A stretch of 64,000 nucleotides of DNA. Origin: Amphiscolops sp. MND2022. Its lineage: Eukaryota. Positions 22,178 to 53,563 of this stretch are shown one piece after another. Both the position numbers and the translations under genes were made by a program. The DNA lies in NCBI GenBank assembly GCA_964187785.1, contig OZ076418.1, forward strand, positions 4,712,001-4,776,000, read 5' to 3'. A model generated the notes under the pieces. It did not search any database and was not told the DNA's origin. It worked only from the letters and a program-made list of their open reading frames with translations. Positions within the stretch are counted from its first letter, which is position 1. Every line of letters begins with the position of its first letter.

Positions 22178-24941
22178 TCTATTTGTTTCTGGGCGAATCT
22201 TTACTGCGTCTTCTTTTTTCGCCGGAAAACTTCAACAAATTGTGCTGGACAAAGTTCTTGTAAATTTTATATTTCAATTGAAACTCGATTCGGGGTGAGA
22301 ACAGGCATTAGGTGGAGCATGAGAGGGGAATGTAAGTGAATTCGTTATATAGTCGTGATTAACAACTAATATGTGGGGACGGAATGAGATGGCATCGTTG
22401 AAAATCTTTCTAAGGTTCTTCGCAGGATTGGCAACTCCAAACTTGGCTCAATTGCTGAAAAATTTTTGGAAACAGTTTGATGGGGGACTTGTGGGTAGTG
22501 AAGGCGGTTCCTACATGGCTCCAAACACGTGCAAGTTTCCCGTGGCTGCCTTTCAAAAGCTGCTTTTCTATAGGCGGAAAACAAATAGACTTACGCCTGA
22601 TTAACAGACAACCTAAACGGTATTGTTTGGAAAGCTGGGTGTTACGATCACACATTCATCTTTTTTTTCTTATTTTGAATCGAAGATCAAATAGTACCGT
22701 TTTCACAAGGGTCGTCCATTTTGAGCCGGGAACTGATAGACAATTCGTTAAGGCCGAACATCTTAGGAGCTAGTGTTGAGGATTTTGTACAGTAAATTTA
22801 CAAGAAAAACCGACTGGGGGGTTGGATTGCTGTTACATAACAGTATATAGGCATTATTAGCGTTGAAAGTGAAACAAGGACTAGAAAAACATTTTTACAT
22901 GCTTGAAAAAAATGTATGAGTGGGGAATTGGCAGCAAACTAAAATTCTAGGACTTCAAGGCCACCGCAAAAACATCCTGGGTTTAGTTCATATTGTTGGA
23001 CATGAGGGGTGAATAAAAATTGTCGAAAAATGTTTTGCCTCAAAACGAAAAAAGATTCGGCTCAGTTATTTCGCGAGCAACATTTTATCAAGGGCATTGA
23101 TAATGGCCAACGCGAGTCATCCTGGATAGTCGTTTTGTGCTCTGAAACAATCCCAAAGGCCATGACAAAAAAAGACAACTATTACAATTAAATAGGAAAT
23201 ATCTTCGAGCATGACGACAGTCTTTGATTGTATTAAGTTGCAAAGGTATTTCTGCAAGGGTTGAGGATTCAATACCAGTGTCTTAGGCGGCTGGGCGTAC
23301 GTAATCTTTCAACTCTCCACATTGACCGAAAAGTTCTTATGTTCTGGTATAGCTTTCTGAACACTCGGGATCAAAAGAGCTCAAAGATATCTGCTTTGGC
23401 TTGAACACTGGCGAATTTAATAGCAGTTTCTTTGTTGCGATGAACTTTAATGCACCCCGACTTGGCCCCTTCCAGTCAGACGAAACAACAAAAACTCGAT
23501 AACGAGAACGTTGCTTTCTTGATCCGAGATTCTCAATATAAAAAGTTACTAATATAATCGGGAAGAGCTTCCACAACTGCGACTTTGTTTCTGGTTTCTG
23601 TTTCTTCACTTCACCGAGGGCTCGAAATTTACTGGTTGCCCGTATTCATAAAAGCCATCACCAGCTAGATCGAAATCACAGATGCTTTTAAGGTAATCCA
23701 TTCTAAAGGAAATTTTTTGAAAAAAGTTTATTGTGAATATTTAATGTGTGAATCGATAGTTGAAGTTACCCCAGTTGAATAATAATTGGATGGAATGCTT
23801 TTCCATGATGAAAACCCAATTGTCTGAAACGCTAGAGTTCGTTATAGCTTCAATGCAGATCAGAATGAAGTACTTTTACTTCATGGAAAAATCTCATACC
23901 AGCAAGCTCCAAGTCTTCAAAAACAATTTACTACAGGTTCTATTTGAGTAAAAAGATCAAGTTTCCATCAATCAATCCTGATGTGCATTAAAAACAGTTT
24001 TCAGTACTGAAGCTTTTGGTGGAAGGAGATAATTCTGGGATATGGTATTTTCATACATAAATCTTTCACTAATTCTGATGATGCCTGATGGAAAAAAATT
24101 GCAACAGACTTGTTGAGCACATTGCTCTTGAGAAATTTGCAAAGGATTAATTAAACAAGAAAGGCCTTGAGAATTTAGGCAAAAGTCTGATTGAACAATG
24201 AGCCCCAAAAACAATCAACTCTGCTTTTATTTCAACTACAATATCTGCAGACGGAACTGTAAAACTTGGTTTGGGTTAGCTATTAAATTCTTTCAGTCTC
24301 ATGTCACAGTTTCAGACTAACGCCGTACTCTATGTCTTTTCATCAAAATGACAGTGAAGAAACTATAGAACGTTATAGTCTCTGAAATGTTTCATCAAGG
24401 AAAAATGAGTTCCATCAGTGTATGTTCAAATGAATGTCTCAAACATTACATGAAGCCAAAAAACACCTTTCTTCCTTCTGGCAGCACGCGGGGACCTGGT
24501 TGGGGTGGAAGGTGCTGCTGGCACGGTTGCTGCTGACTCGGGGGGAGTTTCTATTGCCGTGGGGGGACTGTATGAGGCTCGGGAACAGTCTTCTAGAAAT
24601 TGAAACAAGTTAGAAACAGCTTAGAATCTTTCGGTTTTTTTAAATTTTGTGAATAGTAAAACGAGCATGGAAGTTGTTGTATGTTCCAAATTGAGTTTCT
24701 TGCGAGGCTAACAGAATGTCAAAAAATGTTTGTCGTGTGCGACATATGGCAAATAAAAAAAAGAAACTTACCGTGAAAACTCAAAAAGAAATAAACTCAA
24801 AACTTGTAATATGTAATTTTGTCTTTTGTAATTTGCGCAGTTTTATCTTTAATATTTTCTCGCTCAGCTCTGAATTTTGAACACGCTCGAACGTGTTCAC
24901 TACCTTGTTCAGCAACGCCGCACACATTCCTTGTTTGGTCA

Positions 24942-25114
24942 TGACGTCAAATGACATCATTTTGTCGTGGACGCTACGCCTACGAATAACACATACAAAA
25001 CACTTTCGTTTGTATAGTCATTTGACTTGACGTCATATGACGTCATGCTCGCTAGCCAATCACGATAGTGATTCAATTTTATTGGCTGACGAAGCGGTCA
25101 AATTTAGTATAAAA
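24942..25114 (+). promoter_or_regulatory. Putative LTR promoter: three TGACGTCA (CRE) palindromes, CCAAT boxes, TATA box
   Basis: TGACGTCA at 24942, 25028 and 25038; CCAAT at 25056 and ATTGG at 25081; TATAAAA at 25108. Confidence 0.65.
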
Positions 25115-25364
25115 GCAGACGAAATTTTCAACTGTCAGAGCTCTTCTTTTGGAATAATACTAAATCGACAAACCCGACCACTCCAACCTCTCAATCTCTT
25201 TACACGAGTTCAACTCCCATCATCAGCGGCGCAGTATTTTTTAGTTAAAATCTTTTTCAATTTTCTTTTCGGAGCTTTCACTTTCATTTTTTCTAAGTCT
25301 TTTTCTTAACTTAAACTTAAATCAGTAATTCCCAAAATTTTACAAGTCCTGGCTCAATTCTGTC

Positions 25365-25650
25365 TTAGACAATTTTCAACGCTGCTTCAAGTAAAGCAAA
25401 TATAACTTATATTTTTGTCAAGCCTGCTTCCTAGTTGAAGTAATCCTGACTTAGACAATTTTCAACGCTGCTTCAAGTAAAGCAAATTTAACTTATTTTT
25501 TTGTCAAGCCTGCTTCCTAGCTGAAGCAATTTTGACTTGGACAATTTTCAACGCTGCTTGAAGTAAAGCAAATTTAACTTATACTTTTGTCAAGCCTGCT
25601 TCCTAGTTGAAGCGGATTCATCTTAGGCAATTTTCAACACTACTTTCGAG
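25365..25650. repeat. 86-bp tandem repeat (~3.3 copies) inside the LTR
   Basis: Units TT(A/G)GACAATTTTCAACGCTGCTTCAAG...CCTGCTTCCTAG; also present at ~45010-45225. Confidence 0.9.
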
Positions 25651-26651
25651 CCAAAACAATTTCAAGTCTTCTCTCAAGCTAGAGCAATCATTCTCTTACG
25701 TTGGAGATTCAGTTGACTTTTGACTTCGAACAGAAGCTATTATACCGTCTTTGTTCAACAAAGATTGAATAGTCCCTGCTTTATAGTGGACTCTAAACCA
25801 AAGTCTGGTGATATTCACTGACTCTAAACTGAAAACCACAGCCTCAGCTGGGTTATAAGAGACTTAAACAACTTAGCTATTGTCTGATTCTTAAAGTCGG
25901 ACCGTTCTCAACTTGAGACAAAGAGTAGCCGTATAGCGCTCTATAAAAACAGTACAAAGAAGCGTTGTTCTAAAACCAAAGAATAGCCATTCGCTATCTT
26001 TCCCAGTCCGTGACAATCGGTGGACTATAAACACCGTGCAAGCTATTAGCTGCACTTTGGAAAAGAGGCCTAACCTCTGATTATTAAAACACAACATAAT
26101 AAAAACTTTACGGCTTATTTCCTGATAACTTAATCTAATAACGTTTTCCTAGTAACTTAACTTATTTCATTTATGGATTGATATTAAACCAGATTTAGTT
26201 GTATTTTGTTTATTCAGCTTGATTTGTTTGTTTTGCTTTTGTATAACTGATATCTATTACAAGTTTAGTATAAATAGAGAAAGGTTCATTTCACCTATTT
26301 CTGAACCCAAACAATTTTTTCCCGGGTCGCAAAAATAAAGTCCTTCCGTTCGAACTCAAACCTGATATTTCCTTTGTGTAAGTGCTGGAAGGCATATAAC
26401 GAAAATTTTAAGTAGGAGAATAATTTCAATTTTCAGTCAAGAAAATAGAAGGAAAGTGAGCTAAGAGTTCACGAATTAGACAATAATTGAGGCTTATAAC
26501 TACCGAAATTCAAAGAGAAAAACTGAAAGAAGAAAAATCACTAATTTTGAATATTCTTAGAGAAGCTTTCGCTAATTGGAAGAAAGATATAGATTCATCA
26601 ATTTTCCTACCAACTTAACAAGCACCGTCACAAATTAAGCACTTCACAAAC

Positions 26652-26668
26652 TGGTGCGACCAGTGAGG
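26652..26668 (+). promoter_or_regulatory. Primer-binding site (cognate tRNA not identified)
   Basis: TGGTGCGACCAGTGAGG begins 3 nt after the LTR end, with the TGG complementary to tRNA CCA. Confidence 0.7.
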
Positions 26669-26970: not shown

Positions 26971-27019
26971 CTGAGGGAAACTCAGCCACAAGAAGATCTA
27001 AACTGTCACAATTCTGAGA

Positions 27020-27900
27020 ATGGCTCAGAACGCAGTCTCTTTTCCTGATCTAGCTTTGGACAAGTTCTCTGGGAATGACCCAGACCAAGATGTTAAATCA
27101 TTTCTTTTGACAGTCGAAAACAACATAGACTTTTCATTTGGATCACCCCCACACGATGCTGGCGAAGCTGCTAGATATCTCTTCAGAAAAAAAGCACTTT
27201 TCTCATCTCTCCTTCGCGCACCAGCTGCAGAATGGTACGAAGGATTTAACGTAGGTAACCCACTACCTACTTGGATTCAAGTCAGGACAGCTTTCATAAC
27301 TCGCTTCTCAGATGACAGAGACAAATACAGACACAGAATAACTGCTGAAAACTGTGTTAGAGGAAAAGAAGAACTAGTCAAAAATTTCTATCATAGAGTC
27401 AAACAAGCAGTAGACAAAGGATGGCCTATCGATGCCGCAGCTAATCAAAATGAGAGATGCTCAACAAAACTTGAGAAATCAGAAGTATATTGACTTCACA
27501 ATCAGAGGACTAACTCCTTCGGGACTTAAGAGGAAAGCTCATGAATATCTGATAGAACATCCAAATACAACATGGGGCAATTTCAAAGACCATGTCGCCA
27601 ACAAAGACTTGATTTATTCAGTAAGTTCGGAGTTTGTACCAAACTCAACTAATGAGCAGAACTCTAAACTAGACTCGTTAGAAAAACAAGTCAGAGAACT
27701 TTCAACTCTTCTGAAAGAATAACAAGTTAATGCTTTGAATCAAGCCAACACACGAACCAATGATGTGAACAATAAATCCAGACAGAATGCCACACGCTTC
27801 TGTCACTATTGTAGACGAAACGGGCACACTCTACAATATTGCAGAACTAAAGCTTTTGATGACGAACGAAAACGTCAGTACAATCGTGAGAACCAGCAGA
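27020..27900 (+). pseudogene. gag: gag (capsid + CCHC zinc knuckle), frameshifted with a premature stop
   Basis: KFSGNDP...PAAEWY...TW..VRTAFITRFS capsid-like segment; CHYCRRNGHTLQYC is CX2CX4HX4C; frameshift near 27460 and TAA at 27720. Confidence 0.88.
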
Positions 27901-30900
27901 TCTTGTCAACCAATTACAGTAGTGAGAAGTAAACAAAAGACAAGAACATACACTGGAGAAGAAATACCTATGCTGGGTCACACATTACTAAACTTTAGTT
28001 TTGACTCTGATGGACAACACTGTTTTCAACTCCAACTCTGGATAACAGAAACCAAAACAGCAAATTTATTGGGTATCGAATTCTGCAGAAAATATATATC
28101 CAAACTCCACTTCGATATTCCGGCAATAGAACTCAAAGACACTCCTAACACAATTTGCTGTGGCAGCCTTTGTAATACCAAACTTTATCCCTACCTGTCA
28201 CTAATCAGGGCAATACGGATACCGCACCAGATACATATCGACGCTAAGACTTCTCGTGTCTACAAATATCAACCAGAAGATGAACAAACAAATTTTGCAT
28301 CAGGGACTACTTTTATCCCTCATCAAAAAGTAGCCAACTCCGGACTGGACTTTGTGAATGTACTTTGTACGCAATCAGAACAATATCTACCATTTCTAAT
28401 GGAGAACAACAAGAATCATCAAATAACTCTTGACAAAGGAATTTTGGGATATTCATCGCTGGACATACTAGATTTCGAGCGACCAAAATACCAAATAAAA
28501 GACTGTGTTAAAATGGTTGACTGCATACTATCTGAGAATGACCCGTATAACGAATGTTTTCTACTACACTCGACACTGACCCACGAACCAGACTTCAGAG
28601 ATGGCATACGTATCATTAATGGGAACGATGATACAATCTTTGAAATTCAAACAGCCATTGCTCACTGCATATCAGCCGACGCAAAAATGAGTAAAGGATT
28701 CGCCGAAACTATCAGTAACCACATCAGCGGACTACAAGAATATTGCTACAAATCAGAAGCTTTTGTTGGATCAGTCATCCCCTTCTGGGACAATGATGCA
28801 AATAGATTCGTATACAACCTTGTCACAAAGAACAAGTTCTTTGAAAAACCTACCCTTGAGAACCTTCGGATATTACTTGAAAATATGAGAGTCCACGCCC
28901 TGCTCAACAATGTTCAAATAATAACAATGCCAAAAATTGGTTGTGGACTTGATAAACTCCCTTGGAATGAAGTACTTAAAATACTGAAAGACACTTTCAC
29001 TGACTCTGGAATTCTCATTCAAATCATCTCCAGAAACGAGCTGGATTCAAAACAGCCACCAAGCCTACGAACTCAGAAGACTATATTGAAAACGAAATTG
29101 ATAACTATGCAAACGAATGGAAAAATGAAAAGAACGAGCTAGAAACAGACTTCACCAAAGATTCAAAATCATGTCAGCCTCCTTGTAAAGAACAGTTTCC
29201 AATACTGAGACCTAAAGAGCTAAACAATGATCTCATCGACTACTATTTGCAGTACCAACCGCAGGAAATAAAAGACTTTATCAAACAATTCGATTTCCAA
29301 TACACTGACTTAGAAGATGAAGAACTTGTCATGCTGATAGATATGATCATTGACTCCAGAGATGTATATTCACAACACAAATTCGATATTGGTCGAACCA
29401 AACAGAAGTTTCACGTCACTCTGAAACCTAACTCAGAACTTCGCAAACAACGCCCTAGTAAAGTTCCACTTCATCTGAAAGACAAACTTGAAAAACTTCT
29501 CGGACAACTGCAAGAAACCGGCATCATCAGAGAAAAGGGAGACGATGACGAACTCGGCTCACTTTTTGTAAACCCCATCATTCTCTTACCTAAAGCTGTC
29601 TACGTTAAACTTGTCATTGATGCAAGATATCTGAATTCTATCACTGACCTAACAAACTACTCTTGGCCATTCGAACCAGTCCAAATGATTATGACAAGAA
29701 TCAACGGCAATTACTTCACAGCAAGTGCTCTCGTGTGCATATCACCAAGTACCCCTTAGTGAAGAAACTCAGAAACTAACTAGTTTCATCGTAGGTGGAA
29801 AACAATACACCTATCAAGTTGGATTATATGGCCTTTGTGGACTCCCTCAATGGTTCAGCCGAATGATGGCGATTGACTTCGAACCCCTAGTAAAGAAGAA
29901 ACAAGCAATCACCTATCTTGATGATAGTCTTCTCCAATCGCAAACCAAATGCGAGATGTTCACAATCATACACGAATATCACCAACTCTTTCGAAAAGGC
30001 GGACTAAAAGCCGCACCTGGCAAGACACACTTCTTCTTGAGAAAAATAAAATTCCTGGGACATGTTATATCTCAAGATGGAATTCAACCAGTAGCTAAAC
30101 GAGTACAAGACTTGAAAAATTTGAAGTCACCGGAATGCAAACGAGACGTAATGAAAGTACTCGGATGTTTAGGCTTTATAGCTGTTACATCAAGAATCAA
30201 GAAGACACTACACCTTTCAAATAGACCGAACAACACGAAACACTTTTCAACCAGATAAAAGAAAGAATCTCAGAGGATACAATTTTAGCAGTTCCTTCAA
30301 CTGAATAGCCTTTTCATATTCACGTTGACTCTTCGAATGTAGGAACTGGATGTATATTAGTTCAACAGTTTCCAGAAGGAAAACGAATAGTCTCTTTCAA
30401 CTCTCGTGTCTTTGTCAAGGCAGAACAAAAAATGTCTACCCTCCACCGAGAGCTTTGCGGTATTGTATCTGCAGACCTATGAGCATTACATAATCGGCTC
30501 TCCATTTCCAATCTACCTTTACTGAGACCACAAACCCATCCTCTACTTATGGGGACGAAAAGGACAACTTTCTCATCGGTTCTTCAAGTACCAAGTTATA
30601 ATAACAAAATTTCACAACTTGAAGATAATCTGGACGCCAGGCTCAAACTTAGCATTCCCAGATATACTTAGCCGAAATGTAACACTGTGCGACATCAACA
30701 AATTACAGCGACAGCATAAAGAAATACCGAGAGATATCATTTTATGATGAAAAGGGAGACCAGATGCATTACACTATCAAACACGAAGATAGCCAAGATA
30801 TCTCATGCAATGACTTCTTTCCAATAATATGCCAACACGGGAACGATAGACAAATTCTACACCTGGAGAATGACGGTGACGAGCAGTATATTGAAGACTA

Positions 30901-33177
30901 CATTGAAGACAATGAAGTCTTAGCTACAATGCAAAACATGACCGATTGCTTTATACTCGGCAAGACAATAAACCAATATAAACGACTTTGCTCAGATGTT
31001 TGTCCCTACTTCACAAACTACACCATCGAAGAAGAAACCTACAGCGAAATTGAAGAACAACAAGATGACGGCTACAACAGTGACAACGAAATTGCAGAAC
31101 TAAACTTCGATCAGAAGGACTCCGAATTCTTACACTTGCAAACGAATCAATCCGAAGAAACAAGTCACAAAAACCAATTCTAAAATCCAACATAGACTCA
31201 GAATTACACCCAGAGGTAGATACAAAGGAATTGATACAAAAATTGAGTGACTTTGCAAAAACTGCTGATTTAGATGTAACTACATTAGTTGAAGAACAAC
31301 TCAACGACCCAGTACTACAAAAAGTACGCAGTTGGATAAAGAAATCAGATAAGCGACCAACAAAAACACATGACAACAATCAATCTAAAGCACTACTATC
31401 ATACTTCAATAGATTCGAGCAACTCTTTATAGACGAAGAAACCAACCTCTTATGCTACAACGACACAGTTCAAGAAACAAACAAGACTGAGATGAAATAA
31501 TGTGTTCCCCTATCACTGTTTCTACCACTTTTTAAACTTGCTCACACACACAGTCACAAGGGTCATCCCGGAATATTCAAAACCTTTGAAAATGTTAGAC
31601 AACTTCTTTTGGCCAGGACGATACAAATGGATTGTTTATCTCAGAAGATTGCATTGAATGCCAAATCAATAAGTCAAAACGTCATGACTTACACGAAGCT
31701 CCATTGGAACAATGGGGAGAACTTGAAACTACACCCTTCAAAACAATTCATATAGACCATAAAGGCCCGCTTAGGCCTAGTAGCAATTCGAACAATCATT
31801 GCTTAGTAGTAGTTGACGCGTTTTCAAGGTTCATTGGTGTCTACCCAGTTAAAGACACTAGCTACTATCACTGCATTAGAAAAATGGATCACATCTTATG
31901 GCATTCCTCAGAAAATAATACACGATAACGGGAAAGCATTTATCAACAGTGACTTCATCAACTGGACTAAAGAATTCGGAATAACTCTTGCACCACGAAC
32001 AACATACCATGGACAAACGGAAAAGTAGAAGTACAAAATCAGCACCTTACACGATATTGGAGAAACTTCACTAACGAGTCAGGTAACAATTGGTCAAAAC
32101 TAGCACCGAAGTTTGCATTCGCTCATAACACAAGCGTAAACTACACAACAGGACTTACCCCATATGAAGTAGTGTTCGGGACAAAACCACAAGTTCCTAT
32201 GACGTTAAAACTTGGACTAATACGAGACAAAAATCTTGCGATCTCGCAGATCCGAATATTGCGAAGGATTGAAACCCCATACACACAGCGAAAATCAGCT
32301 ATCGAACAAATCCCTGGATCGATTACTCAGACCACAACTTTCAGACGAACTTATTGCTCGCGAAAATGACTTCAAACGAATCTATTCGTCAACCTATCAA
32401 CGATGCCGACAAATCACTTCTAAAGCACACGAATACAGGAACCGATTCAAACTCGGACGACCTATCAACATTGGACAAAAAGTATTCTTAGAGAATCACA
32501 CTGCCGACTTGAGCAGATCACAAAAATTAAAACAATTACGTGTTGGCCCTTTTACAGTCACTAAACAAATAACAAATACGACCTACGAAATTCAAGAGGA
32601 CGCTAATCCTGATAATATCAAAGTTACTCATCGGAATCACCTGATTGAATACTTTCCTAAAGAGGAAAGACTCCCTCCTTTAATCACTAACTACGCGCCG
32701 CCTATAACAAAAGATAGTGATTTCTACAAACATTTAGTGCAGTCGCAAATTAATGACTATAATTCAAACCAACAAAGATTTTCCCTAGATGTAATGCCTT
32801 TTATCATATCGCCGCTACAAGAAAAAACTAACATTCACGAATTGAACAAAAATCACGCTGCACTTTCACCTAACGCTGATTCAGGAATTCAATCTCCTTC
32901 TACGCCTACCAATGATGATCACAATTATCAAAATCGAACTATTTCACCATTGCCGCCGCTACAAACTCCTATACTCCCTATGACTCCTATGCCTATTCGT
33001 GTTCCTACTATTTTGAGGACAACACCGCAATTTCATGAAGCTGAACAATCTACTTCTTCATCGTCAAAAAAGAGAAATAAAGTTGCTGATATTACATCAA
33101 AAATAAAAGCAAAATACAAACGCTCCGATCCTGATAGCTCACTACGGAAATTAGAAAGAAGGGGATATAAAGATTAA
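27900..33177 (+). pseudogene. pol: pol: partial protease, dUTPase-like spacer, macrodomain, RT, RNase H, integrase with GPY/F tail; multiple disablements
   Basis: PR C-half (TYTGEEIPMLG...NLLGIEF), with no catalytic DxG segment visible; RT LVIDARYLN, YHQVPL, TYLDD, FLGHVIS; RH HVDSSNVGTG, ELCGIV, DHKP; IN HxxxGH/CIEC, IHIDHKGP, HDNGKAF, NGKVEVQN; VGPFTVTK. Confidence 0.92.
28600..29034 (+). CDS. TARG1/OARD1 (Poa1p-like) macrodomain embedded in Pol
   Basis: IAHCISADAKMSKGFA...YNLVTK...KPTLENL...MPKIGCGLDKLPW closely follows recalled OARD1 LAHCISEDCRMGAGIA...YYLITK...KPTYENL...MPRIGCGLDRLQW. Confidence 0.9.
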
Positions 33178-36100
33178 ATTATAAAGGGAAAGGGAAACAA
33201 AAATTATAAGGAGAGATTTCCGATTAACGTAACAAAAACGCAAATACAACAAATATCTATACATATATACAATCAGGGAAGCAAGGGCCCAATGGTTTCC
33301 ATTTCCATGTAAGCTTGTTCAACTAGGAAATTCACAAATTGCTGCTGGTTCCCCATCTCCCAACGCACCACTAACTCTCGCTTCGCCAATGGGGACAAAG
33401 CCAAATACGAAGTTCGAATTGTCTCTAACTTGAAGAAAAACACCTCTCCCACTGAGGACGCTCAACCACTGAAACAGAACAACTTGTATATAAAAGAGGA
33501 AAAATTGACTTCTACTTGACAGCACAAGTACAATCACATCACTATACATCATACGACTATAGAGAAGTACCAAAAAGGTATATTAAAAAACAAAAAGACA
33601 TTCTTACGAGGAGTTCCAGTGACAATTCCCAAAATTGCCTGAAAACGATCACTAAGATCGACAGGAATAGCTGCATCCATCCCCAACATCGGACGACGAC
33701 TATCAGCTATTACCTGCTTGAGTGATCTTAATTCGTTTTGACAGATAATTGCCGGCCATACATGTTCCCCATAATCTACTACAGGAATCATATCTGACGG
33801 AAGAAAATGCGGATGAACGACAGGAGGATTGAGAGCCATATAAGTCTTAAAACACACAGATTGAATTTTCACTTTCAGCACCCCTCTACCTCAAAAATTT
33901 CCCAGCTACCCAACCCAAAAATTTGCGAACGCACAAACCGAACAAAATTCACAACTTTTCTTTTTCGTTCAACGGCGGTGGGACTACTTTGTAGTTATAT
34001 AGTCAGTAGAAATCAAAAAAAAACAGAAATTAACACCCGAAAAACACCCGACCTAACAGCCCAGAAACAGCAGATAAAATGAAGAAAACAAAGAAGAAAA
34101 ACAACAAAAGCCCCAATAAACAATCTCTACCCATCTGTGTTATACTCACATTGTATCTTTTAATCTAAACAAATGTCACATTTGCTTCCTTTAATTTACG
34201 CTTTTGTTGAAATAAAAGAAAAGAAAATCTTTTGTTAAACTCTCTTTTGTCAGTTGAAGGTTAACGTTTTATCTTTGTTCATTTTCAGATAGTCATCTTT
34301 TCAACTCTCCTCTTCGAATTTAGCTATTGTTCATAATAACATATTTTTCTTTTCAGCTAGCAATAAACAAATTTGCTCAACTTACCTTTTCTCTGCTGTG
34401 ACCGAAAATAATTTCTTCTTAGCTTTTTAATTACCTTTCATTTTAGCTGCCAAGCTCTTCAACCTCACACTTATTCAATAGTATAGATTATTCCCACTAG
34501 CAAGCTCCGCTGTTGCCAACGGAGACGAATTATAAATTCTCTTTTAACTCCTTAATTACCTTTTATTTTAGCCGCCAAGCTCTTCAACCTCTCACTTAAT
34601 CGATAACATAGAATATTGCCTCTTACAAGCTCCGCTGTTGCTAACAGAGATGAATTCTCTTTTAACTTTAACTCTTTAATTATCTTTTTTTAACTACCGA
34701 CGAATTCAACTAATGATTTTTGCCCCCCAAGCTCCTTTGTTTTGAGCAAAAAGTAAATTTTGAACTAGTTCTTTAGCCATCGCTTTTGTAAGATTCTAAA
34801 ATGAATTTTACAGAGTAAGTCGAAGCGCATGGTTTTGTTTGTATTTTAGCAAAGCTTACAACTACACAATCAACTGACGAATCTAGCAGCAAATGTACCT
34901 CAAGATAAACAACGACTTCTACAGGATAATAAAATCAGAGTTAAGAAATCAAACTTTTCACGTCCTTCTACAACACCATCAGGCTAAAGAAGACTGCTGA
35001 TTTAGATGTAACTACATTAGTTGAAGAACAACTCAACGACCCAGTACTACAAAAAGTACGCAGTTGGATAAAGAAATCAGATAAGCGACCAACAAAAACA
35101 CATGACAACAATCAATCTAAAGCACTACTATCATACTTCAATAGATTCGAGCAACTCTTTATAGACGAAGAAACCAACCTCCTATGCTACAACGAGACAG
35201 TTCAAGAAACAAACAAGACTGAGATGAAATAATGTGTTCCCCTATCACTGTTTCTACCACTTTTTAAACTTGCTCACACACACAGTCACAAGGGTCATCC
35301 CGGAATATTCAAAACCTTTGAAAATGTTAGACAATACTTCTTTTGGCCAGGACGATACAAATGGATTGTTTATCTCATAGAAGATTGCATTGAATGCCAA
35401 ACCAATAAGTCAAAACGTCATGACTTACACGAAGCTCCATTGGAACAATGGGGAGAACTTGAAACTACACCCTTCAAAACAATTCATATAGACCATAAAG
35501 GCCCGCTTAGGCCTAGTAGCAATTCGAACAATCACTGCTTAGTAGTAGTTGACGCGTTTTCAAGGTTCATTGGTGTCTACCCAGTTAAAGACACTAGCTA
35601 CTATCACTGCATTAGAAAAATGGATCACATCTTATGGCATTCCTCAGAAAATAATACACGATAACGGGAAAGCATTTATCAACAGTGACTTCATCAACTG
35701 GACTAAAGAATTCGGAATAACTCTTGCACCACGAACAACATACCATGGACAAACGGAAAAGTAGAAGTACAAAATCAGCACCTTACACGATATTGGAGAA
35801 ACTTCACTAACGAGTCAGGTAACAATTGGTCAAAACTAGCACCGAAGTTTGCATTCGCTCATAACACAAGCGTAAACTACACAACAGGACTTACCCCATA
35901 TGAAATAGTGTTCGGGACAAAACCACAAGTTCCTATGACGTTAAAACTTGGACTAATACGAGACAAAAATCTTGCGATCTCGCAGATCCGAATATTGCGA
36001 AGGATTGAAACCCCATACACACAGCGAAAATCAGCTACCGAACAAATCCCTGGATCGATTACTCAGACCACAACTTTCAGACGAACTTATTGCTCGCGAA

Positions 36101-38730
36101 AACGACTTCAAACGAATCTATTCAACCTATCAACGATGCCGACAAATCACTTCTAAAGCACACGAATACAGGAACCGATTCAAGCTCGGACGACCTATCA
36201 ACATTGGACAAAAAGTATTCTTAGAGAATCACACTGCCGACTTGAGCAGATCACAAAAATTAAAACAATTACGTGTTGGCCCTTTTACAGTCACTAAACA
36301 AATAACAAATACGACCTACGAAATTCAAGAGGACGCTAATCCTGATAATATCAAAGTTACTCATCGGAATCACCTGATTGAATACTTTCCTAAAGAGGAA
36401 AGACTCCCTCCTTTAATCACTAACTACGCGCCGCCTATAACAAAAGATGGTGATTTCTACAAACATTTAGTGCAGTCGCAAATTAATGACTATAATTCAA
36501 ACCAACAAAGATTTTCCCTAGATGTAATGCCTTTTATCATATCGCCGCTACAAGTAAAAACTAACATTCACGAATTGAACAAAAATCACGCTGCACTTTC
36601 ACCTAACGCTGATTCAGGAATTCAATCTCCTTCTACGCCTACCAATGATGATCACAATTATCAAAATCGAACTATTTCACCATTGCCGCCGCTACAAACT
36701 ATACTCCCTATGACTCCTATGCCTATTCGTGTTCCTACTATTTTGAGGACAACACCGCATTTTCATGAAGCTGAACAATCTACTTCTTCGTCGTCAAAAA
36801 AGAGAAATAAAGTTGCTGATATTACATCAAAAATAAAAGCAAAATACAAACGCTCCGATCCTGATAGCTCACTACGGAAATTAGAAAGAAGGGGATATAA
36901 AGATTAAATTATAAAGGGAAAGGGAAACAAAAATTATAAGGAGAGATTTCCGATTAACGTAACAAAAACACAAATACAACAAATATCTATACATATATAC
37001 AATCAGGGAAGCAAGGGCCCAATGGTTTCCATTTCGTCAATTTCCATGTAAGCTTGTTCAACTAGGAAATTCACAACTTGCTGCTGGTTCCCCATCTCCC
37101 AGCGCACCACTAACTCTCGCTTCGCCAATGGGGACAAAGCCAAATACGAAGTTCGAATTGTCTCTAACTTGAAGAAAAACACCTCTCCCACTGAGGACGC
37201 TCAACCACTGAAACAGAACAACTTGTATATAAAAGAGGAAAAATTGACTTGTACTTGACAGCACAAGTACAATCACATCACTATACATCATACGACTATA
37301 GAGAAGTACCAAAAAGGTATATTAAAAAACAACAAGACATTCTTACGTGAGGAGTTCCAGTGACAATTCCCAAAATTGCCTGAAAACGATCACTAAGATC
37401 GACAGGAATAGCTGCATCCATCCCCAACATCGGACGACGACTATCAGCTATTACCTGCTTGAGTGATCTTAATTCGTTTTGACAGATAATTGCCGGCCAT
37501 ACATGTTCCCCATAATCTACTACAGGAATCATATCTGACGGAAGAAAATGTGGATGAACGACAGGAGGATTGAGAGCCATATAAGTCTTAAAACACACAG
37601 ATTGAATTTTCACTTTCAGCACCCCTCTACCTCAAAAATTTCCCAGCTACCCAACCCAAAAATTTGCGAACGCACAAACCGAACAAAATTCACAACTTTT
37701 CTTTTTCGTTCAACGGCGGTGGGACTACTTTGTAGTTATATAGTCAGTAGAAATAAAAAAAACAGAAATTACCACCCGAAAAACACCCGACCTAACAGCC
37801 CAGAAACAGCAGATAAAATGAAGAAAACAAAGAAGAAAAACAACAAAACCCCCAATAAACAATCTCTACCCATCTGTGTTATACTCACATCGTATCTTTT
37901 AATCTAAACAAATGTCACATTTGCTTCCTTTAATTTACGCTTTTGTTGAAATAAAAGAAAAGAAAATCTTTTGTTAAACCCTTTTTTGTCAGTTGAAGGT
38001 TAACGTTTTATCTTTGTTCATTTTCAGATAGTCATCTTTTCAACTCTCCTCTTCGAATTTAGCTATTGTTCATAATAACACATTTTTCTTTTCAGCTAGC
38101 AATAAACAAATTTGCTCAACTTACCTTTTCTCTGCTGTGACCGAAAATAATTTCTTCTTAGCTTTTTAATTACCTTTCATTTTAGCTGCCAAGCTCTTCA
38201 ACCTCACACTTATTCAATAGTATAGATTATTCCCACTTGCAAGCTCCGCCGTTGCCAACGGAGACGAATTATAAATTCTCTTTTAACTCCTTAATTACCT
38301 TTTATTTTAGCCGCCAAGCTCTTCAACCTCTCACTTAATCGATAACATAGAATATTGCCTCTTACAAGCTCCGCTGTTGCTAACAGAGATGAATTCTCTT
38401 TTAACTTTAACTCTTTAATTATCTTTTTTTAACTACCGACGAATTCAACTAATGATTTTTGCCCCCAAGCTCCTTTGTTTTGAGCAAAAAGTAAATTTTG
38501 AACTAGTTCTTTAGCCATCGCTTTTGTAAGATTCTAAAATGAATTTTACAGAGTAAGTCGAAGCGCATGGTTTTGTTTGTATTTTAGCAAAGCCTACAAC
38601 TACACAATCAACTGACGAATCTAGCAGCAAATGTACCTCAAGATAAACAACGACTTCTACAGGATAATAAAATCAGAGTTAAGAAATCAAACTTTTCACG
38701 TCCTTCTACAACACCATCAGGCTAAAGAAG
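31261..38730 (+). repeat. Internal tandem duplication: copy 1 31261-34992, copy 2 34993-38730
   Basis: Near-identical ~3.73-kb copies with junction AAAGAAG|ACTGCTG; both contain integrase, the Pol tail and the downstream spacer. Confidence 0.95.
35230..36907 (+). pseudogene. Second (duplicated) integrase/Pol C-terminus
   Basis: ORFs 35440-35664, 35549-35764 and 35972-36907 mirror those of copy 1. Confidence 0.9.
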
Positions 38731-38831: not shown

Positions 38832-38840
38832 TGGTATTTA

Positions 38841-39197
38841 ATGATGAACATAATTTTTGATGAAGGCGAAATTGATGAAGTAGAATTCAACTGCCCTTGG
38901 AAAATAACAACTCCTTCAGGCAATTCCGAAAATTTTATAATTACCAAACTTAGGTGGTCACAAATATCACCTTGTTTCATCTCCGTGACACTACACCCCA
39001 CTAGCGGCAAAAATGAAGTAACTACCTTTGAAGTCGCAGAAGATAGTTTTCTTGAAGCCCAACTTTCTAAAGCACTAAGCGAATACCTTCGGAATCCAGA
39101 ACAACACGTTGAACAGTATCACCTCCACGTTCTTGGGGAGCTAACTGATACAATAGCCCCATTGATGTATTCAGAAAACACTGACAAAAGCAGCTAG
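38841..39197 (+). CDS. Accessory ORF c1, 118 aa, unrecognised domain (paralogue 1)
   Basis: Aligns by eye with c2: EVxFNCPxKITTPSGxxENFII...QLSxALxxY...PExH...LHxLGE. Confidence 0.75.
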   Translation: MMNIIFDEGEIDEVEFNCPWKITTPSGNSENFIITKLRWSQISPCFISVTLHPTSGKNEVTTFEVAEDSFLEAQLSKALSEYLRNPEQHVEQYHLHVLGELTDTIAPLMYSENTDKSS

Positions 39198-39199
39198 AT

Positions 39200-39499
39200 A
39201 TGAACTTTCACCGTAATAACGAAGTTACCGAAGAAGTCAATTTTAACTGCCCCTTTAAAATAACTACTCCTTCAGGCATCACTGAAAACTTCATTATCAT
39301 CAGACTCAAGTTGTCCTTTACCAAACCCAGTTTCATTTTGATAACAATACACCCTGTAAATAATAAAAGCAAAGTCTCCACTTTAGAAATCGCTAGTAAT
39401 AGATTCCTCCGAGAACAACTATCTGAGGCTTTGGATGATTACGCTGAAGAACCAGAATCACATATCACCCAATTTCAACTCCACATCCTTGGAGAGTAA
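39200..39499 (+). CDS. Accessory ORF c2, 99 aa (paralogue 2)
   Basis: Starts 2 nt after the c1 stop; same conserved motifs as c1. Confidence 0.75.
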   Translation: MNFHRNNEVTEEVNFNCPFKITTPSGITENFIIIRLKLSFTKPSFILITIHPVNNKSKVSTLEIASNRFLREQLSEALDDYAEEPESHITQFQLHILGE

Positions 39500-39530
39500 G
39501 CCGACACAACAGCAGCATAAAGAAAATCGA

Positions 39531-39653
39531 ATGAGCTTCAGCTTACGTGAGCAAATCATTAGACAAGTCTGGATCAGGAACATCCTCCCACAACTACACC
39601 CTCAGGTATCTAGAAATCAACTTCCTCAAAACTTAACCCGAAAACGACAATAA
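39531..39653 (+). CDS. Accessory micro-ORF, 40 aa, basic C-terminus
   Basis: MSFSLREQIIRQVWIRNILPQLHPQVSRNQLPQNLTRKRQ, packed tightly between c2 and c3. Confidence 0.35.
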   Translation: MSFSLREQIIRQVWIRNILPQLHPQVSRNQLPQNLTRKRQ

Positions 39654-39661
39654 ATCAACAA

Positions 39662-40060
39662 ATGTTCATTCACAATCTCTGGGAAGAAGACGCAATTGAG
39701 ACAGTTAAACTAAAACTTCCAGTATCGATATACAGTTTAATCGACCCCATCAAAAGCCCTGAACTACTAATCATTAAAGAATTGCAGTGGTCATACCGAT
39801 ACCAGTTCTGGCTGACAGCTAGAGGCTATACAGTATTAAAACCAAAAACTAAAGTCTCCATAAGAGTAGAAGAGAAAACGAAATTCTTTGCCGAATTAGC
39901 CATTGCTTTATCAACCTATATTGACAGTCCTGAAACGAACATACAACCCTTCGACCTACCACTCCTAGACGAATTGTCTTCTTTTATGGAAACAGGACTG
40001 GGTTCCTTCGAAGAATTCTACACTGCTAAAATAAAAGAAATCCTCAGCTTGCAAAAATAA
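39662..40060 (+). CDS. Accessory ORF c3, 132 aa (diverged paralogue 3)
   Basis: ETVKLKLP...LIIKELQWS...ELAIALSTYIDSPETNIQPFDLPLLDEL parallels the c1/c2 pattern; AATAAA follows at ~40114. Confidence 0.65.
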   Translation: MFIHNLWEEDAIETVKLKLPVSIYSLIDPIKSPELLIIKELQWSYRYQFWLTARGYTVLKPKTKVSIRVEEKTKFFAELAIALSTYIDSPETNIQPFDLPLLDELSSFMETGLGSFEEFYTAKIKEILSLQK

Positions 40061-40874: not shown

Positions 40875-41155
40875 TCAAAAGAGCCTTTCACGAAAAGGAC
40901 TATCATCCATTTGCTTTTGACTAAATTGTCAATTTTCAGCAGAATTCATTCTTGCTCTCTTTTCAGTTCAATTTGAACAAATCATCTGTATTGCCAAGTG
41001 CTACAGATTTCTCGCTGCTCTATTGAAAGCAAAGCGGCTCTTCTCATTGCTTCATCGAAAGCAAAACATTCTCTTCATTTCAAGGTTAGCAAGTCTACCT
41101 TTCTATTTCTAAACCGTTTATAGTATTTTCGGAGTACCGTTTTCATTAGTAGATA

Positions 41156-43289
41156 ATGGATAGTGAAAAGATATACTGTAAATATTTGGTTACTTTCATT
41201 TTGATACTTTCAATAAATCCCATCTACACCGACAAAAAGCAGCCTATACTGGATGATATCGCACCTACAGTCACAGTCTCACATTACGATTGCAGTGAAA
41301 TGTCAGAAAACAATCTCTACTCTCTCAACCAAGTCAAACCCTACAACGTGGCTCCTGAGAACATAGACATGAGCTATGCCAAAATCAAGATGTATACAAA
41401 ACATTTTCGAACAGAGATTAACGCTACCATATGCAGCGTCAAACATCAGAGAAACAGATTCTATTGTGGAATGCATGACCATTCCAGCATCGATATCAAA
41501 CAAAAGACAATTACCTCCTATCTCGATTTAACGCCTGCACAATGCAGACTTGCAGCTGAAGGATCACCAATAACTCTACTAAATCATCAAATTACAATGA
41601 AAAAAGGGATTATTGAACAACATCTTAGATGGAATGGCGACGCAGACGACACATTTAAAAATGAATGTGATGGCTTTGAGTGGATTGAAAAAGATACTTT
41701 CGAGACTCACATCCAAGACATTACTCTGAATGTCAAACTCTAAGATGGAACTATAATGAATAGAAATGGACAACCTCTACCCTGCAAACTAGACGAACTG
41801 GGATGTGACAGCACTTCACTTGACCCATATGCTTATGTGTGGGACAATCCAGACAATTGTATTCTTACCGTACTGAAAGAAGATTACGTAAACATGCTCA
41901 AAATTGACGATCAATACTATATTGTTAGCCGAAACGATTCAGAAAACAAATACCTCTTTGAAATCAAAAACAGACCACAAAAGTTTTGTAATAAACCGTC
42001 AGATGTATATCCTACAACTTATGAATCTTTGTTTGTTGCCATCCTTTATGGTGGATTCGACATGAAAACAGGACGAAATATGATTCAACAAGAAGACAAA
42101 GTCCACAAGATGGTCTATTCCCCTAATAACCAAGAAAGAGATGAACCAGGTCATAGCAAACTCTGGGTTGCCAGTAACCATCATTCAAACCCATATTTTG
42201 GAACATGGTTGAACGTGGACTACGAATTACAACAGGCAACTAAACTGGACTATCTTTTCTTTGAGAGCTCCAGAGCGCTCAAAGCCTCAGAACTTCATCT
42301 TTTAAAAAATCAGTGTGAACAAGAACGATCGCACATACTCACTATTCTAATGCTTTCACTTGAAAACTCAAGACTAGCTGGATATATGATAACTGGAAAC
42401 AGATCAATGTTCTTAGAAAATGATGGAAGCCTTTCATGGCTTTACTCTTGTCCTCTAGTCAGATACCCTCTTCATACGATGAACGGGTGCTACGATAAAA
42501 TACCCATCTTTTACAAAGGACAAATCAAATTTGTAGATCCCATCACAAGGCAAACTTTACCTGATGCAATGCCTCAGAAATGTTCGGATCACATAAAGAA
42601 CCTTTTTCAAATGGACATGGACGATAAGAACTCTTGGTTCTCACTAACACCACAGATCACACAGAGATAGACCTGCTATCTTTTCGCCAAAAGATGTAGC
42701 ACCATTCACAAGGGACAAGTTCCCTCAATCAATCAACGCTGGAATGTACACGAAAGGCCAGCTAACTGAATTTTGGGACAACATCCTCATGAGTTCTGCG
42801 TCGAAGAATGCCTTACAAAAGTTCACAAGAAAACTCATTGTCCCTTCACAATCAAAGAATGGACCTGGAGGATACACATACTAGGCACCCAAAATGGATT
42901 TCATTGTTGATAACATGATATCTCCTGGTTACTTCGAAAACAAATTTAGACAAACATTTGGCACAATTGGATATTGGCTAGAAAAATATTTTATTTGGTT
43001 TGCAGTTTTCCTTTTTATAAAATTTATTATTGATGTGACAGTAACTATCGTCAGAGCATTCGAGATACACCGACTTACTGGAGCATCTATTGGATTTGGT
43101 AAAATCCTACTCTCTGCAACTTACAATCTATTTATGGTTTCCATCTTTCATTCGATGTTCAACCCCACTACAAAAGATGTTCCAATGACAACATTCAGCA
43201 CTGACAACCAAGATGCCTCTGAACACATCTATCCTGTCATAAACCGTCTACCACCTACTAATCGTTTAGATACAATATCTCCTATTTAA
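41156..43289 (+). pseudogene. env: env-like glycoprotein resembling chuvirus (Jingchuvirales) G / class III fusion proteins; two stops and one frameshift
   Basis: Signal-peptide-like N-terminus; HYDCS...LYSLNQV; CSVKHQRNRFYCGMHDH; LTPAQCR; AGMYT..QL; C-terminal hydrophobic segments. TAA at 41741, frameshift at ~42663, TAG at 42882. Confidence 0.82.
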
Positions 43290-43314
43290 CTTTTGTACTC
43301 TGTTTTAGCAAAGA

Positions 43315-44772
43315 ATGACCGACCACACTTCTCTTTCATCAGATCTGGAACTTCTCTCAAAAGAAACTCTAACAGAGAAGGATATACTCGATTTTCCTAG
43401 GTTTGATATCACCTCAGGCGAATCTCCTATTCCTCAACAAACACTTAATCAAACTCTCTTAGAAGGCACTATTACTCCTCCAAACCGCCCTAATACATTT
43501 ATCTTTAACGGCAGTATTAAAAAGAAGAAAACTCAATATTCGTTGAGACAAGCACTTGGAAAACAAAAAAAAAGTGAAGAAGCCGCCGAAAATTATTCAA
43601 AAACGAGAAACCCCAGAATTCATTACAACCTCCACTATACACTTAGAGAAGACGTCAATCAGTGGAAAATTATTTTCTGGGATTCAAGGAGACAAGAATT
43701 TACTACTGAAAACACCGTTCTTAAGAACCAGAGACTATCAGTACCCCTCGGGCTATCTCTGCTTTCATTTGAAAACAAAATGAAAAAACAATTAATAGAA
43801 GAACTCAACCTTAGATTAGCCGCCATGGAAAATGAAATTACAACACTACAAAATCAAATAACAAATCTCAGCCAACCTACATACACCAACGACGACATCA
43901 CCCAGATGAAGATGCTTATTAGCAAGTTCCCAATTAGCAACCTCAAAAACGCACAATATCTGCATGCAACACAATTACAAGTTGCAAACCTTTCCGAACA
44001 ACTGGAACATGAAAGGAATCTACGAAGACAACAAGATAGAAATATTCAGCAACTTCAAACTAATATTCAAAACCTTCAGACTATCATTCACGAGAAGTTA
44101 ACTACAACACAATCAGTAGAACAACCTGTAAATACTCCTCTCTTTACCCCTCCTTCAACTGAACCCGAATCAACAGATGCTCAAAAACAACTTGCTGAAC
44201 TAAAACCCCCTAAAAGACTAACAATGGATCTTTATGATCGTATTCACAGCATTGATTGCGGAAGAAACAAAAAGCTAATCTGGAGAATTAGCTCCTCCAG
44301 CCTTATGTTTGATAGCGCAAAGGCTGCTGAACTAGAAAGGCAAAAAGGCGTCGACCCGCACCCCAAAATACCTTGTAGTTTTCACAGCCCTCCATTTCAC
44401 ACTTCAACTCACGGGTACCGCTTTGATATGAAATTTTATCCTTATGGATGTTCTCCTGCTACTGGAGAAAGCGCTTCACTAGTCATCAACATCCTTCCTG
44501 GCGAATTCGACCCAATCCTCTCTTGGCCTTTCAAACTAATCTTCCGAATTTATGTAATCAATTTGAGTGAGCCCAGTGATATCTGGACAAAAATAGTAGA
44601 TCCAAAAGACAACCAAAATTCAGCTTGTTTTATATGACCTTGTACAAGCTATGGGAACCCGAGCATATGCTTCCCCTTTCTGATCCCACAGAGCCAACTC
44701 TTCAAAAGCAACTCCCCATTCATTCTGAATGATACGATGTTCATCGAAGTCAACCTGGAAGAATCAGAATGA
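43315..44772 (+). pseudogene. Retroelement-encoded coiled-coil + TRAF-C (MATH) protein without RING, 485 codons with one internal TGA
   Basis: Coiled-coil heptads, then LIWRIS...FHSPPFHTSTHGYRFDMKFYPYG...GEFDPILSWPFK...F(R)P...FILNDTMFIEV, the TRAF-C signature. TGA at 44635 lies where the conserved FxRP arginine is expected. Confidence 0.88.
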
Positions 44773-44827: not shown

Positions 44828-45473
44828 TGTCGTGTGCGACATATGGCAAATAAAAAGAAAGAAACTTACCGTGAAAACTCAAAAAGAAATAAACTCAAAA
44901 CTTGTAATATGTAATTTCGTCTTTTGTAATTTGCGCAGTTTTATCTTTAATATTTTCTCGCTCAGCTCTGAATTTTGAACACGCTCGAACGTGTTCACTC
45001 CCTTGTTCAGCAAATTTAACTTATATTTTTGTCAAGCCTGCTTCCTAGTTGAAGTAATTCTGACTTAGACGATTTTCAACGCTGCTTCAAGTAAAGCAAA
45101 TTTAACTTATATTTTTGTCAAGCCTGCTTCCTAGCTGAAGCAATTTTGACTTGGACAATTTTCAACGCTGCTTCAAGTAAAGCAAATATAACTTATACTT
45201 TTGTCAAGCCTGCTTCCTAGTTGAGTAAAATTTTAAGTAGGAGAATAATTTCAATTTTCAGTCAAGAAAATAGAAGGAAAGTGAGCTAAGAGTTCACGAA
45301 TTAGACAATAATTGAGGCTTATAACTACCGAAATTCAAAGAGAAAAACTGAAAGAAGAAAAATCACTAATTTTGAATATTCTTAGAGAAGCTTTCGCTAA
45401 TTGGAAGAAAGATATAGATTCATCAATTTTCCTACCAACTTAACAAGCACCGTCACAAATTAAGCACTTCACT
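44828..45473 (+). repeat. 3' LTR with two internal deletions (646 bp)
   Basis: Matches 5' LTR segments ~24731-24914, the 86-bp repeats and ~26402-26648; the promoter block is missing. Confidence 0.9.
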
Positions 45474-45802
45474 TGTTTAAGTTGCAGGAGTTCATGACAG
45501 TTTGGAATGTCCTTATGATATTTTATATTCAGAATTTAAAGTCATATACCAATTTTTGAACTCGTTTTTATTATTCAACTTCATCAATGAAAAACTTATT
45601 TAAAACACGTGATTTGACTTTTATATTCGTGTGAACTAAAAGTAAATTCTATTAGATTTTTCGACTGAATCTCGATATAAGTTTTACCTTATTCGCAGAG
45701 TGGGCAAATCACCAAAGTTCTGAAAAAGACATTTGGAGAAGCTGATGACACGATATCATCAAAGTTAATGATCGCATTTTGGGGAGGTTGCCTAAATCGT
45801 GA

Positions 45803-51900: not shown

Positions 51901-53560
51901 TGGAGCTTTTATTGAACCATGTTCCTCTTTTGGCGTGGTTGGAGAAGGAGTTTACCCACTCGAGGTTGTGTTCTTGACACCAGTCAAGGAGATCTCGGCC
52001 CTGCTCGTTTGTGGGTGTTTCGAGGCCGTACTTCCCGCTGACTCCATCCCTTTCCGACGCTTTGCCTACGTGAGCGTTATGGTCTCCGCCCATTATCATT
52101 AGGCAGTCAGAGGGGATTTTTACAAGGAGGTCTTCGACATCTTTACGGTACACATCGATAGTGTCTTCCCCATGTGTTTTCAAGGGTTGGTAAACGGATA
52201 TGATACACATTTTGTCAATCTGGATGAGGAGCGCTCTTTCTCTAAATTCCATTTTCTGGTTCCCTCTTATCCATTGGTCTAGAGCTGAGCCCCAGAGAAT
52301 GATTCCGGTTTTGAGGGAATGGATTATCGCTACCGTCTTTTCCCCTTTGCCCATCCATATGACTCCTTGTTTGTCTGATCTTGTTTCAGGGATTATAGTA
52401 ATCTCCCATCCATTTTTCTGGATGAATTCGATTGTCCGTTTTAGTCTAGCGCGGTTTTTCTCCCTCATGGAGATTCCTTGGAGGTTCCATGTTACCACTT
52501 TTATCTCTCTATCCGGGGGTAACTTTCTCCGTTCCCTGCGCTTTGTTTGCCTCCTTATGTTTCTCAGTTTTTTGTTTTCTTCTGATCTTTTTGTTTTTCC
52601 CCTTCTGGTTGGTCCCGGATTTGGGTGCACCGTTTCCAGCTTCCTGGCTATTATCGTGCCTGTGTGGCGGGCACTTGCCGAAACGGGTCCGAGAGGGCCC
52701 TCGCCGTCAAGTTTGTTGAAGAGGTGCTTTGGTTGGCTAGACCATTGCCACTCCGTTGGCTTCCGGGAGGTGGCTTCACTGATCCTTACGGCTCCTTGGA
52801 AGTTCCTTTTCCGGGGCCCCTGTGTGTTCTTTGACGCACAAGACATGCTGTGCGCGGCCCACTTGCGCCACGTAGGAGGCGACACACTCCGCACATTGAT
52901 ACCTCATTGGAATCATCATCATCATCGTCGTCGTCTTTGGTATCCGAATTTTCAATATCGCTTTCTCCGAGGGCCCAGCTTTCTTCATAATGAAGTTGAT
53001 TGCCAGGAATTGAGGTATTTTTCATCTCAGCACAAAAAAAGTACCCGGGCATCTTTCGACAGTGAGTTGACGTCGTTTATTGATGCTACCCGAACATCAC
53101 CTTCGCCCTGTGATTCGTTTGTTTGTCCTGTCAATTTCTGCAACAATGGGTATATGGAAACAGGAAATTCCTTGAACTGGTCCACTTTCCATTTGCTGTT
53201 ATGGTACGTTTCTTTAACAAGGACCAACTGCTTGGAGTTCTCGCTAACCGAGGCTCTCATCCGCTCTGTTTCGTTCATGGAAATGATCATCGATTTCATT
53301 GTGATAATGGATGACAACTAAAATAAAGAAAAGCCATTATTTTGCTAAGTATCATAACGAGCGGACGGCAGGTGCGCGTTATATTGATTTCATCAGTGCG
53401 ACGAAAACTGCAGACGGCGGGTCTGCGGGCGGACGCGACAGCGGGTCGCGGCTCGGGCGGGCACGACGGCGGGTCGCGCGGCGGGTGGTCGTCCCGCCGG
53501 GCCCTCGCTCTTTCTGTCAAAACTTTCTTACTGTCTGCGCGAAGGAATTAGAGTGATTGA
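48961..53560 (-). mobile_element. RTE-like non-LTR retrotransposon (LINE), near full length, disabled
   Basis: APE endonuclease (VVTWNL, GGDHNAHVG, SDHKPV), RT (NYRGVCLL, QSGFRPGRST, GLREGCPTSP, LFADD), DRKTWR motif, (GAA)n tail at 48961-48977 and a GC-rich 5' end. No clear TSD, so the 5' boundary is approximate. Confidence 0.88.
48978..52894 (-). pseudogene. LINE ORF2: 2A-like motif, APE, RT, four C-terminal zinc fingers; one frameshift and one stop
   Basis: ORFs 50066-52894, 49749-50084 and 48978-49700 join through a frameshift (~50085) and an in-frame TAA (49749-49751). Confidence 0.88.
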
Positions 53561-53563
53561 CCC

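Follow-up and report, generated by a model that had tools for sequence, protein, structure and literature searches.

What is a TRAF protein doing at the very end of a retroelement, and what might the element gain from it? This question is raised by the stretch 43315..44772 of the 64,000-nt piece of DNA analysed here (the window). A preliminary description proposed that an element had captured a host TRAF without its RING and kept it, with a novel N-terminal extension, as an immune or apoptosis decoy. The stretch is the last-gene region of a Ty3/gypsy element that bears an env; it lies between this env and the 3′ LTR, and its limits were given correctly: the ATG lies at 43315, 25 nt past the env stop (43289), and the final stop ends at 44772, 55 nt ahead of the 3′ LTR (44828).

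The features of this element are given below. “Family 1” is the LTR family to which the window copy belongs, and “family 2” is its sister.

24731..26648 (+), 5′ LTR, ~1.9 kb, TG...CA, with an 86-bp tandem array (self-BLAST, LTR alignment)
26652..26668 (+), primer-binding-site-like stretch that begins TGG, 3 nt past the 5′ LTR (sequence; same in another copy)
26984..27990 (+), gag, broken (weak PF03732; stops and a frameshift by tblastn with a natural copy)
27769..33177 (+), pol, with Macro-like domain, RT, RNase H and integrase, and several frameshifts and stops (Pfam, tblastn with a natural copy)
34990..38730 (+), second unit of a tandem duplication of 3.74 kb that spans integrase and the spacer behind it (98.6% identical to 31258-34992)
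38832..40060 (+), three small accessory ORFs, paralogous to one another, that also have family-2 homologues (ORF listing, Pfam, other copies)
41153..43289 (+), env, Monjiviricetes-type fusion glycoprotein, broken here (PF24664; 3 stops and a frameshift)
43290..43308 (+), splice-acceptor-like pyrimidine tract with AG at its end, 6 nt ahead of the ORF-A ATG (sequence)
43315..43772 (+), ORF-A, in the family a gene of its own (153 aa), here run into ORF-B (alignment of copies; dN/dS 0.10-0.12)
43745..43750 (+), private frameshift joining ORF-A to ORF-B (register differs from 48/48 other copies)
43780..44772 (+), ORF-B, a captured TRAF that has neither introns nor a RING (330 codons in this copy, 323-330 aa where the frame is open)
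43780..44095 (+), distal coiled coil, a homologue of the first coiled coil in the host TRAF (natural copy L051 is 48% identical to the host exon over 96 aa)
44275..44760 (+), TRAF-C (MATH) domain (PF21355, PF22486; PDB; Foldseek)
44635..44637 (+), private premature stop within TRAF-C (0/48 other copies)
44828..45473 (+), 3′ LTR, with two large internal deletions relative to the 5′ LTR (LTR alignment)

Pfam matches in the window and in natural copies confirm the order gag, RT, RNase H, integrase. The element is ~18.7 kb long with gag as a 436-aa frame, and env follows integrase as a separate ORF after pol (135.9 bits for PF24664 in another copy, where the frame is open over 713 aa). The two LTRs differ by 9 mismatches per 645 aligned bases and the insertion is flanked by a 4-bp target-site duplication (45474-45477 = 24727-24730); another copy also has a 4-bp duplication. 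The 3.74-kb duplication (31258-38730) has diverged as much as the LTR pair and is unduplicated in another copy. With its breaks taken as assembled, the window copy is to all appearances a young but dead element, since gag, pol, and env all carry stops or frameshifts. The small ORFs at 38832-40060 matched no Pfam family, and their homologues sit at the equivalent place in family 2.

Some smaller observations belong here. A Macro-like domain (PF01661, under cut-off) lies in pol upstream of RT, at window ~28800-28990, and the 86-bp LTR array (25309-25696 and 45009-45254) differs widely in unit number among copies. An E-H-I-Y-P motif in the env tail (window 43220-43245) is kept in both families and is possibly a tyrosine sorting signal.

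The TRAF-C domain and the coiled coil ahead of it, both claimed from the outset, stand up to comparison. PF21355 scores 72 bits in the window frame and 72-82 bits across the window and natural copies (cut-off 27.4), the best PDB match of the window frame is TRAF5 (E 4.7e-13), and the top Foldseek matches to a model of an open natural copy are all TRAF domains (E about 1e-11). The coiled coil is homologous to a host coiled-coil exon (E 2e-18); the model places helices at 57-102 and 127-151 with low confidence, the pLDDT of the N-terminal half being mostly <50. The helix adjoining TRAF-C is shorter than that of the host and contains a proline. TRAF family members other than TRAF1 have an N-terminal RING and zinc fingers, and no Pfam match to either was found in ORF-B.

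TRAF domains form trimers that bind receptor tails via three hot spots, namely the polar pocket, the serine finger, and the hydrophobic pocket (as described in PMC6125299). In alignments with TRAF5 and TRAF1, ORF-B retains the polar-pocket Tyr and has Lys in place of Arg, the strand reading K-L-Y-P-Y-G-C-S, while its serine finger is S-A-C versus three serines in TRAF1/2/3/5. The receptor groove also departs partly from the host donor, in which K and S of family 1 are R and D. The assignment of these groove residues to TRAF2 numbering is our assumption. ORF-B keeps the fold and its near-invariant groove strands, the motifs of strand-3 and strand-7 being almost invariant in 26 open copies, without the ligase part.

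Two points of the preliminary description must be corrected. The TGA inside the frame is real and private, as there is a stop at this place in none of the 48 other family-1 copies; it had been called the only lesion, and this it is not. A second private lesion, the frameshift near 43745-43750, sets the window copy apart from all 48, and there is a further private in-frame gap near 43351 (the same length difference against 47/48 copies). The “novel N-terminal extension” also falls away: in the family, the first ~150 codons of the frame form an ORF of their own, 153 aa long and closed by a conserved stop, and the extension is a decay artefact because the frameshift fuses two separate genes, ORF-A and ORF-B. 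With the internal stop read as X the window frame comes to 485 residues, and this 485-aa “extended” protein is, to judge from the other copies, not a product of the family. The private changes of the window copy (one synonymous, two non-synonymous, and one stop over 72 invariant columns) are too few for measuring neutral decay.

The family-1 layout is env, a 153-aa ORF-A, a 2-7 nt spacer, and a 323-330-aa ORF-B. Family 2 has the same gene order, with an ORF-A of 163-169 aa that ends in identical residues and an ORF-B of 250 aa. Could programmed frameshifting nonetheless yield an ORF-A/ORF-B fusion protein, of which the window copy would be the demonstration? Such a protein might be suspected from the narrow gap of 2-7 nt, from third codon positions that are nearly invariant close to the end of ORF-A, and from 2/48 other copies (L003 and L044) with a continuous fused ORF. 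These two, however, are fused by indels at other places than that of the window, and the two ORFs share one frame in just 7/47 measurable copies, each via its own indel. In addition, the offset from the ORF-A to the ORF-B frame varies among subfamilies (gap 7 or 2 nt, and 36 nt in family 2), the same residues close ORF-A in both families, fusion is seen in 0/21 family-2 loci (18 distinct places), and ORF-B is present in the protein collection as a 324-330-aa protein. A search by ORF-A alone gave 379 candidates; among the 150 that were scored, open frames were mostly of 155, 175, or 187 codons and none was of fused length. We consider a fusion protein very unlikely and rejected it on account of the varying offsets, the different indels, and the lack of any family-2 fusion.

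The TRAF domain is carried by many copies and not by the window alone. A DNA search of the genome gave 198 candidates, of which 40 were scored and found to be 91-94% identical, the window itself aside. With Pfam there were 440 candidates; the best-scoring 150 were scored, 150/150 passed the cut-off, and six have an internal stop (a few of these 150 are host exons). The sample used for comparison, 30 loci per search, comprised 48 family-1 copies besides the window, nine family-2 copies, and two host genes.

Is ORF-B then maintained, or simply copied along with the element as a neutral passenger? Across three independent, non-overlapping subfamily pairs, the dN/dS of TRAF-C is 0.05, 0.08, and 0.10 (upper 95% bounds 0.10-0.16), as against 0.12-0.23 for the coiled coil, 0.46-0.67 for the linker, and 0.02-0.08 for the env tail; in family 2 the TRAF-C value is 0.05 (one pair). 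When pairs at dS >=0.2 are pooled, from 26 open ORF-B and 29 open ORF-A copies, TRAF-C comes to 0.07, the coiled coil to 0.18, the linker to 0.37, and ORF-A to 0.12, with the proviso that these pairs are non-independent; open copies, moreover, were chosen by TRAF similarity and are biased to intact ones. A passenger would account for the many broken copies and for the near-identical pairs, in which dN/dS is 0.55. This value approaches neutrality, as is expected after insertion. It would not account for 0.05-0.10 between subfamilies at dS 0.3-1.0, which is as low as in env, and on these inter-subfamily values a neutral passenger is scarcely credible and was rejected at the family level. ORF-B is under strong purifying selection in two families, with env-like constraint. 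Neither a non-TRAF score, nor absence from other copies, nor neutral evolution in all of them was found, and the early claim that the domain is kept under selection is upheld.

The origin of ORF-B can be traced to the host, as the preliminary description had supposed: a tree against host TRAFs places the ORF-B families and two intron-bearing host genes, L032 (G000:C3:90.866-90.870 Mb) and L075 (C3:25.702-25.704 Mb), in one clade. In a TRAF-C tree of 20 rows, families 1 and 2, a third family (see below), and both host genes stand apart from two other host TRAFs (100/99). A tree of 33 rows, which left out three proteins without the anchor motif and did not include TRAF1, separates the same clade from these two host TRAFs and from canonical TRAFs (99/97). 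A distinctive motif in the coiled coil, and an insert that follows the first strand of TRAF-C, are common to ORF-B and both host genes. ORF-B lines up in order with three exons of L032, at 48% identity in the coiled coil and 49% in TRAF-C, and it aligns with a spliced orthologue, P0187, at 38% over 373 columns (E 2e-87). The GT...AG introns of L032 and L075 are absent from ORF-B, which runs uninterrupted across them and so fits capture from mRNA.

Was the RING lost on capture, or before it? P0187 is a 474-aa protein on a 2,362-nt contig, and its initial Met-Pro-Val-Lys is that of the G000 exon as well; it has no RING or zf-TRAF match, only the vestige of one zinc finger. The sole zf-TRAF match among 21 G000 candidates is on another contig, and nothing like its exons turned up in the 15-18 kb ahead of L032 or L075. 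No longer host protein with a RING was found, which is weak evidence. The host donor thus appears to have been RING-less already, although another 63 codons of open frame precede the Met in the G000 exon, behind an acceptor-like AG, so that further upstream host exons are possible. Relative to this donor, ORF-B lacks the first 55 residues, most of the Ser-rich linker, part of the proximal helix, and the C-terminal tail.

The two families may not owe their TRAFs to a single event. Between them, integrase is 83% identical, env 61%, ORF-A 40%, and TRAF-C just 27-32%, whereas in TRAF-C each family shares 40-49% with the host genes; this is a hint of two captures, although topology tests do not reject one clade for both families (p-AU 0.27 and 0.37). 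A third repeated family (L066-L074) has a TRAF that belongs to this host clade and retains the last host intron, mid-way in 3.8-kb inverted arms that are 99.6% alike (examples L078:5359-9163 and L079:693-4501; G000:C1:78.428-78.437 Mb). About 27 of its places were scored, at 53-59% to the host exon, and no arm ORF had a Pfam match. It looks like a palindromic DNA element. By their sequences, then, two LTR families and this putative DNA element all carry TRAFs of one host clade.

Intronless RING-less TRAFs of the same clade, on long branches, also occur in other assemblies (P0059, P0072, P0087, P0060, P0061, P0063, P0076, P0091, and P0092). Three intronless TRAFs from other assemblies cluster with family 2 (98/99). 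Queries with three intronless TRAFs of other species gave no G000 match at strict cut-offs, and P0059 found nothing in metagenome contigs.

What, then, could a TRAF without a ligase do for its carrier? We favor, with a probability of about 0.5, the reading that ORF-B acts as a decoy: devoid of a ligase, it would dampen death or innate-immune signaling in the element-expressing cell. A host TRAF would have been captured from spliced mRNA during reverse transcription, and it would now be expressed from spliced subgenomic RNA, ORF-B being reached by reinitiation in family 1 and by its own acceptor in family 2. Acceptor-like tracts are found before ORF-A in family 1 (in 7/7 copies inspected) and before ORF-B in family 2, so that subgenomic RNAs are likely, if as yet only predicted. 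The protein may trimerize, alone or with host paralogues, via its conserved distal coiled coil; it would then occupy TRAF-binding motifs and relay no signal, and the producing cell would survive better, to the benefit of the element. Dominant-negative TRAF fragments block receptor-induced NF-kB/JNK activation. It is important to remember that the argument from such fragments is weakened because it assumes RING loss on capture; with a donor that appears RING-less already, the missing RING does not count as an adaptation of the element. It is weakened further because TRAF1, which is RING-less, has both negative and positive roles (PMC11117997).

The main rival builds on this very ambiguity. ORF-B could act as a positive scaffold and raise, by mimicry, the dose of the host RING-less TRAF; it would join RING-bearing TRAFs or IAPs and switch on survival or NF-kB-type signaling, sparing the cell or driving the LTR. 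The architecture of the donor is TRAF1-like, and TRAF1 is described as anti-apoptotic and as positive together with TRAF2 (PMC11117997); moreover, the 26 open copies conserve the distal coiled-coil motif that the host also has, and in family 1 it is whole. Yet family 2 retains a mere short remnant of the coiled coil with an equally constrained TRAF-C, which places the selected function in the binding domain, and both families are distant from the host sequence (40-49%). We hold such a scaffold to be possible but rather doubtful. The host might also be beside the point, if ORF-B had been re-used in the particle or trafficking machinery of the element, with the env tail, Gag, or ORF-A as partner, and host signaling were untouched. 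The tight env / ORF-A / ORF-B block of both families would suit this, and the long branches from the host gene (0.9-1.0 versus about 0.1) would permit a change of partner. Against this, the families agree in TRAF-C at just 27-32%, next to 83% in integrase and 61% in env, and an unrelated, env-less element, by its looks a DNA element, took a TRAF of the same host clade; we regard this possibility as unlikely.

TRAF cargo in mobile elements is already known from Burro, and the element described here is a variant of this theme in a differently built, env-bearing element. The Burro/GYPSM1 elements of planarians carry MATH_TRAF_C, BIR, and BCL2-like motifs (PMC6431247), which makes them a precedent for cargo from death pathways, and the IAP of Burro1 is said, second-hand in PMC13465017, to protect stem cells. 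As far as PMC6431247 describes them, they resemble the present element in being gypsy-like, in an env akin to mononegavirus fusion proteins, and in MATH_TRAF_C, which forms an accessory ORF of its own in Dugesia tigrina. They differ in their size of >30 kb, a polyprotein of 4,900-5,100 aa, an env between gag and pol, and additional ankyrin motifs (PMC6431247); here, the element is ~18.7 kb, env is a separate ORF after integrase, and the TRAF is the last gene. None of the element ORFs scanned (>=100 aa) had BIR, BCL2-like, or ankyrin cargo. As the Burro layout is not matched and the TRAF nests with genes of this genome, we are likely dealing with an independent case, Burro being taken here by its description and not by its sequence.

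The host donor and ORF-B resemble mammalian TRAF1 in being a coiled coil plus TRAF-C with no RING and hence no ligase activity (PMC11117997, PMC6125299). The receptor hot spots differ in the alignments, and the clade is separate from canonical TRAFs in a tree of TRAFs other than TRAF1. Like metazoan envelope-carrying Ty3/gypsy elements, the element has gag-pol-env and LTRs (PMC13524379); unlike them, it has five accessory ORFs around env. The words “TRAF” and “macro” are absent from the main text of PMC13524379, and the literature searched (main texts, few of them subscription papers) held no account of this element.

What is new here is a TRAF cargo that can be traced to a specific intron-bearing host gene, its env-like constraint, and at least one further capture, by what looks like a DNA element. 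We tentatively propose, and would not wager at even odds, that one lineage-specific RING-less host TRAF has been stolen repeatedly: by two sister LTR families separately, by a palindromic DNA element, and by elements of related species. The adaptor would then flag a pathway of death or immunity that detects mobile elements in this animal group and that the captured copies antagonize. Such convergent theft of the same adaptor would point to TRAF-dependent death or immune signaling as a barrier to retroelements in invertebrates.

ORF-A, the companion of ORF-B, is an orphan. It had no Pfam family, no Atlas match, and no viral fold match at E<=0.001, and its structure model is poor (pTM 0.26). Its N-terminus is acidic, its middle basic, and its C-terminal part small, beta, and conserved; between families it is 40-44% identical, with a dN/dS of about 0.1. 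We presume a likeness of this layout to that of viral transactivators. One ORF-A match (G000:C7:66571045-66571287) lies within a 929-codon open frame, perhaps env run into ORF-A.

Elsewhere in the window there are scattered host-gene exons at about 7700-20505 (+), the one that was scanned having no Pfam match; we take them to resemble VPS35L. A zinc-finger-ended frame at 48978-50150 (-) resembles the end of a non-LTR element. Tandem repeats are found as a 226-bp array of 13 units at 11443-14441 and as three 1.08-kb units at 53493-56734.
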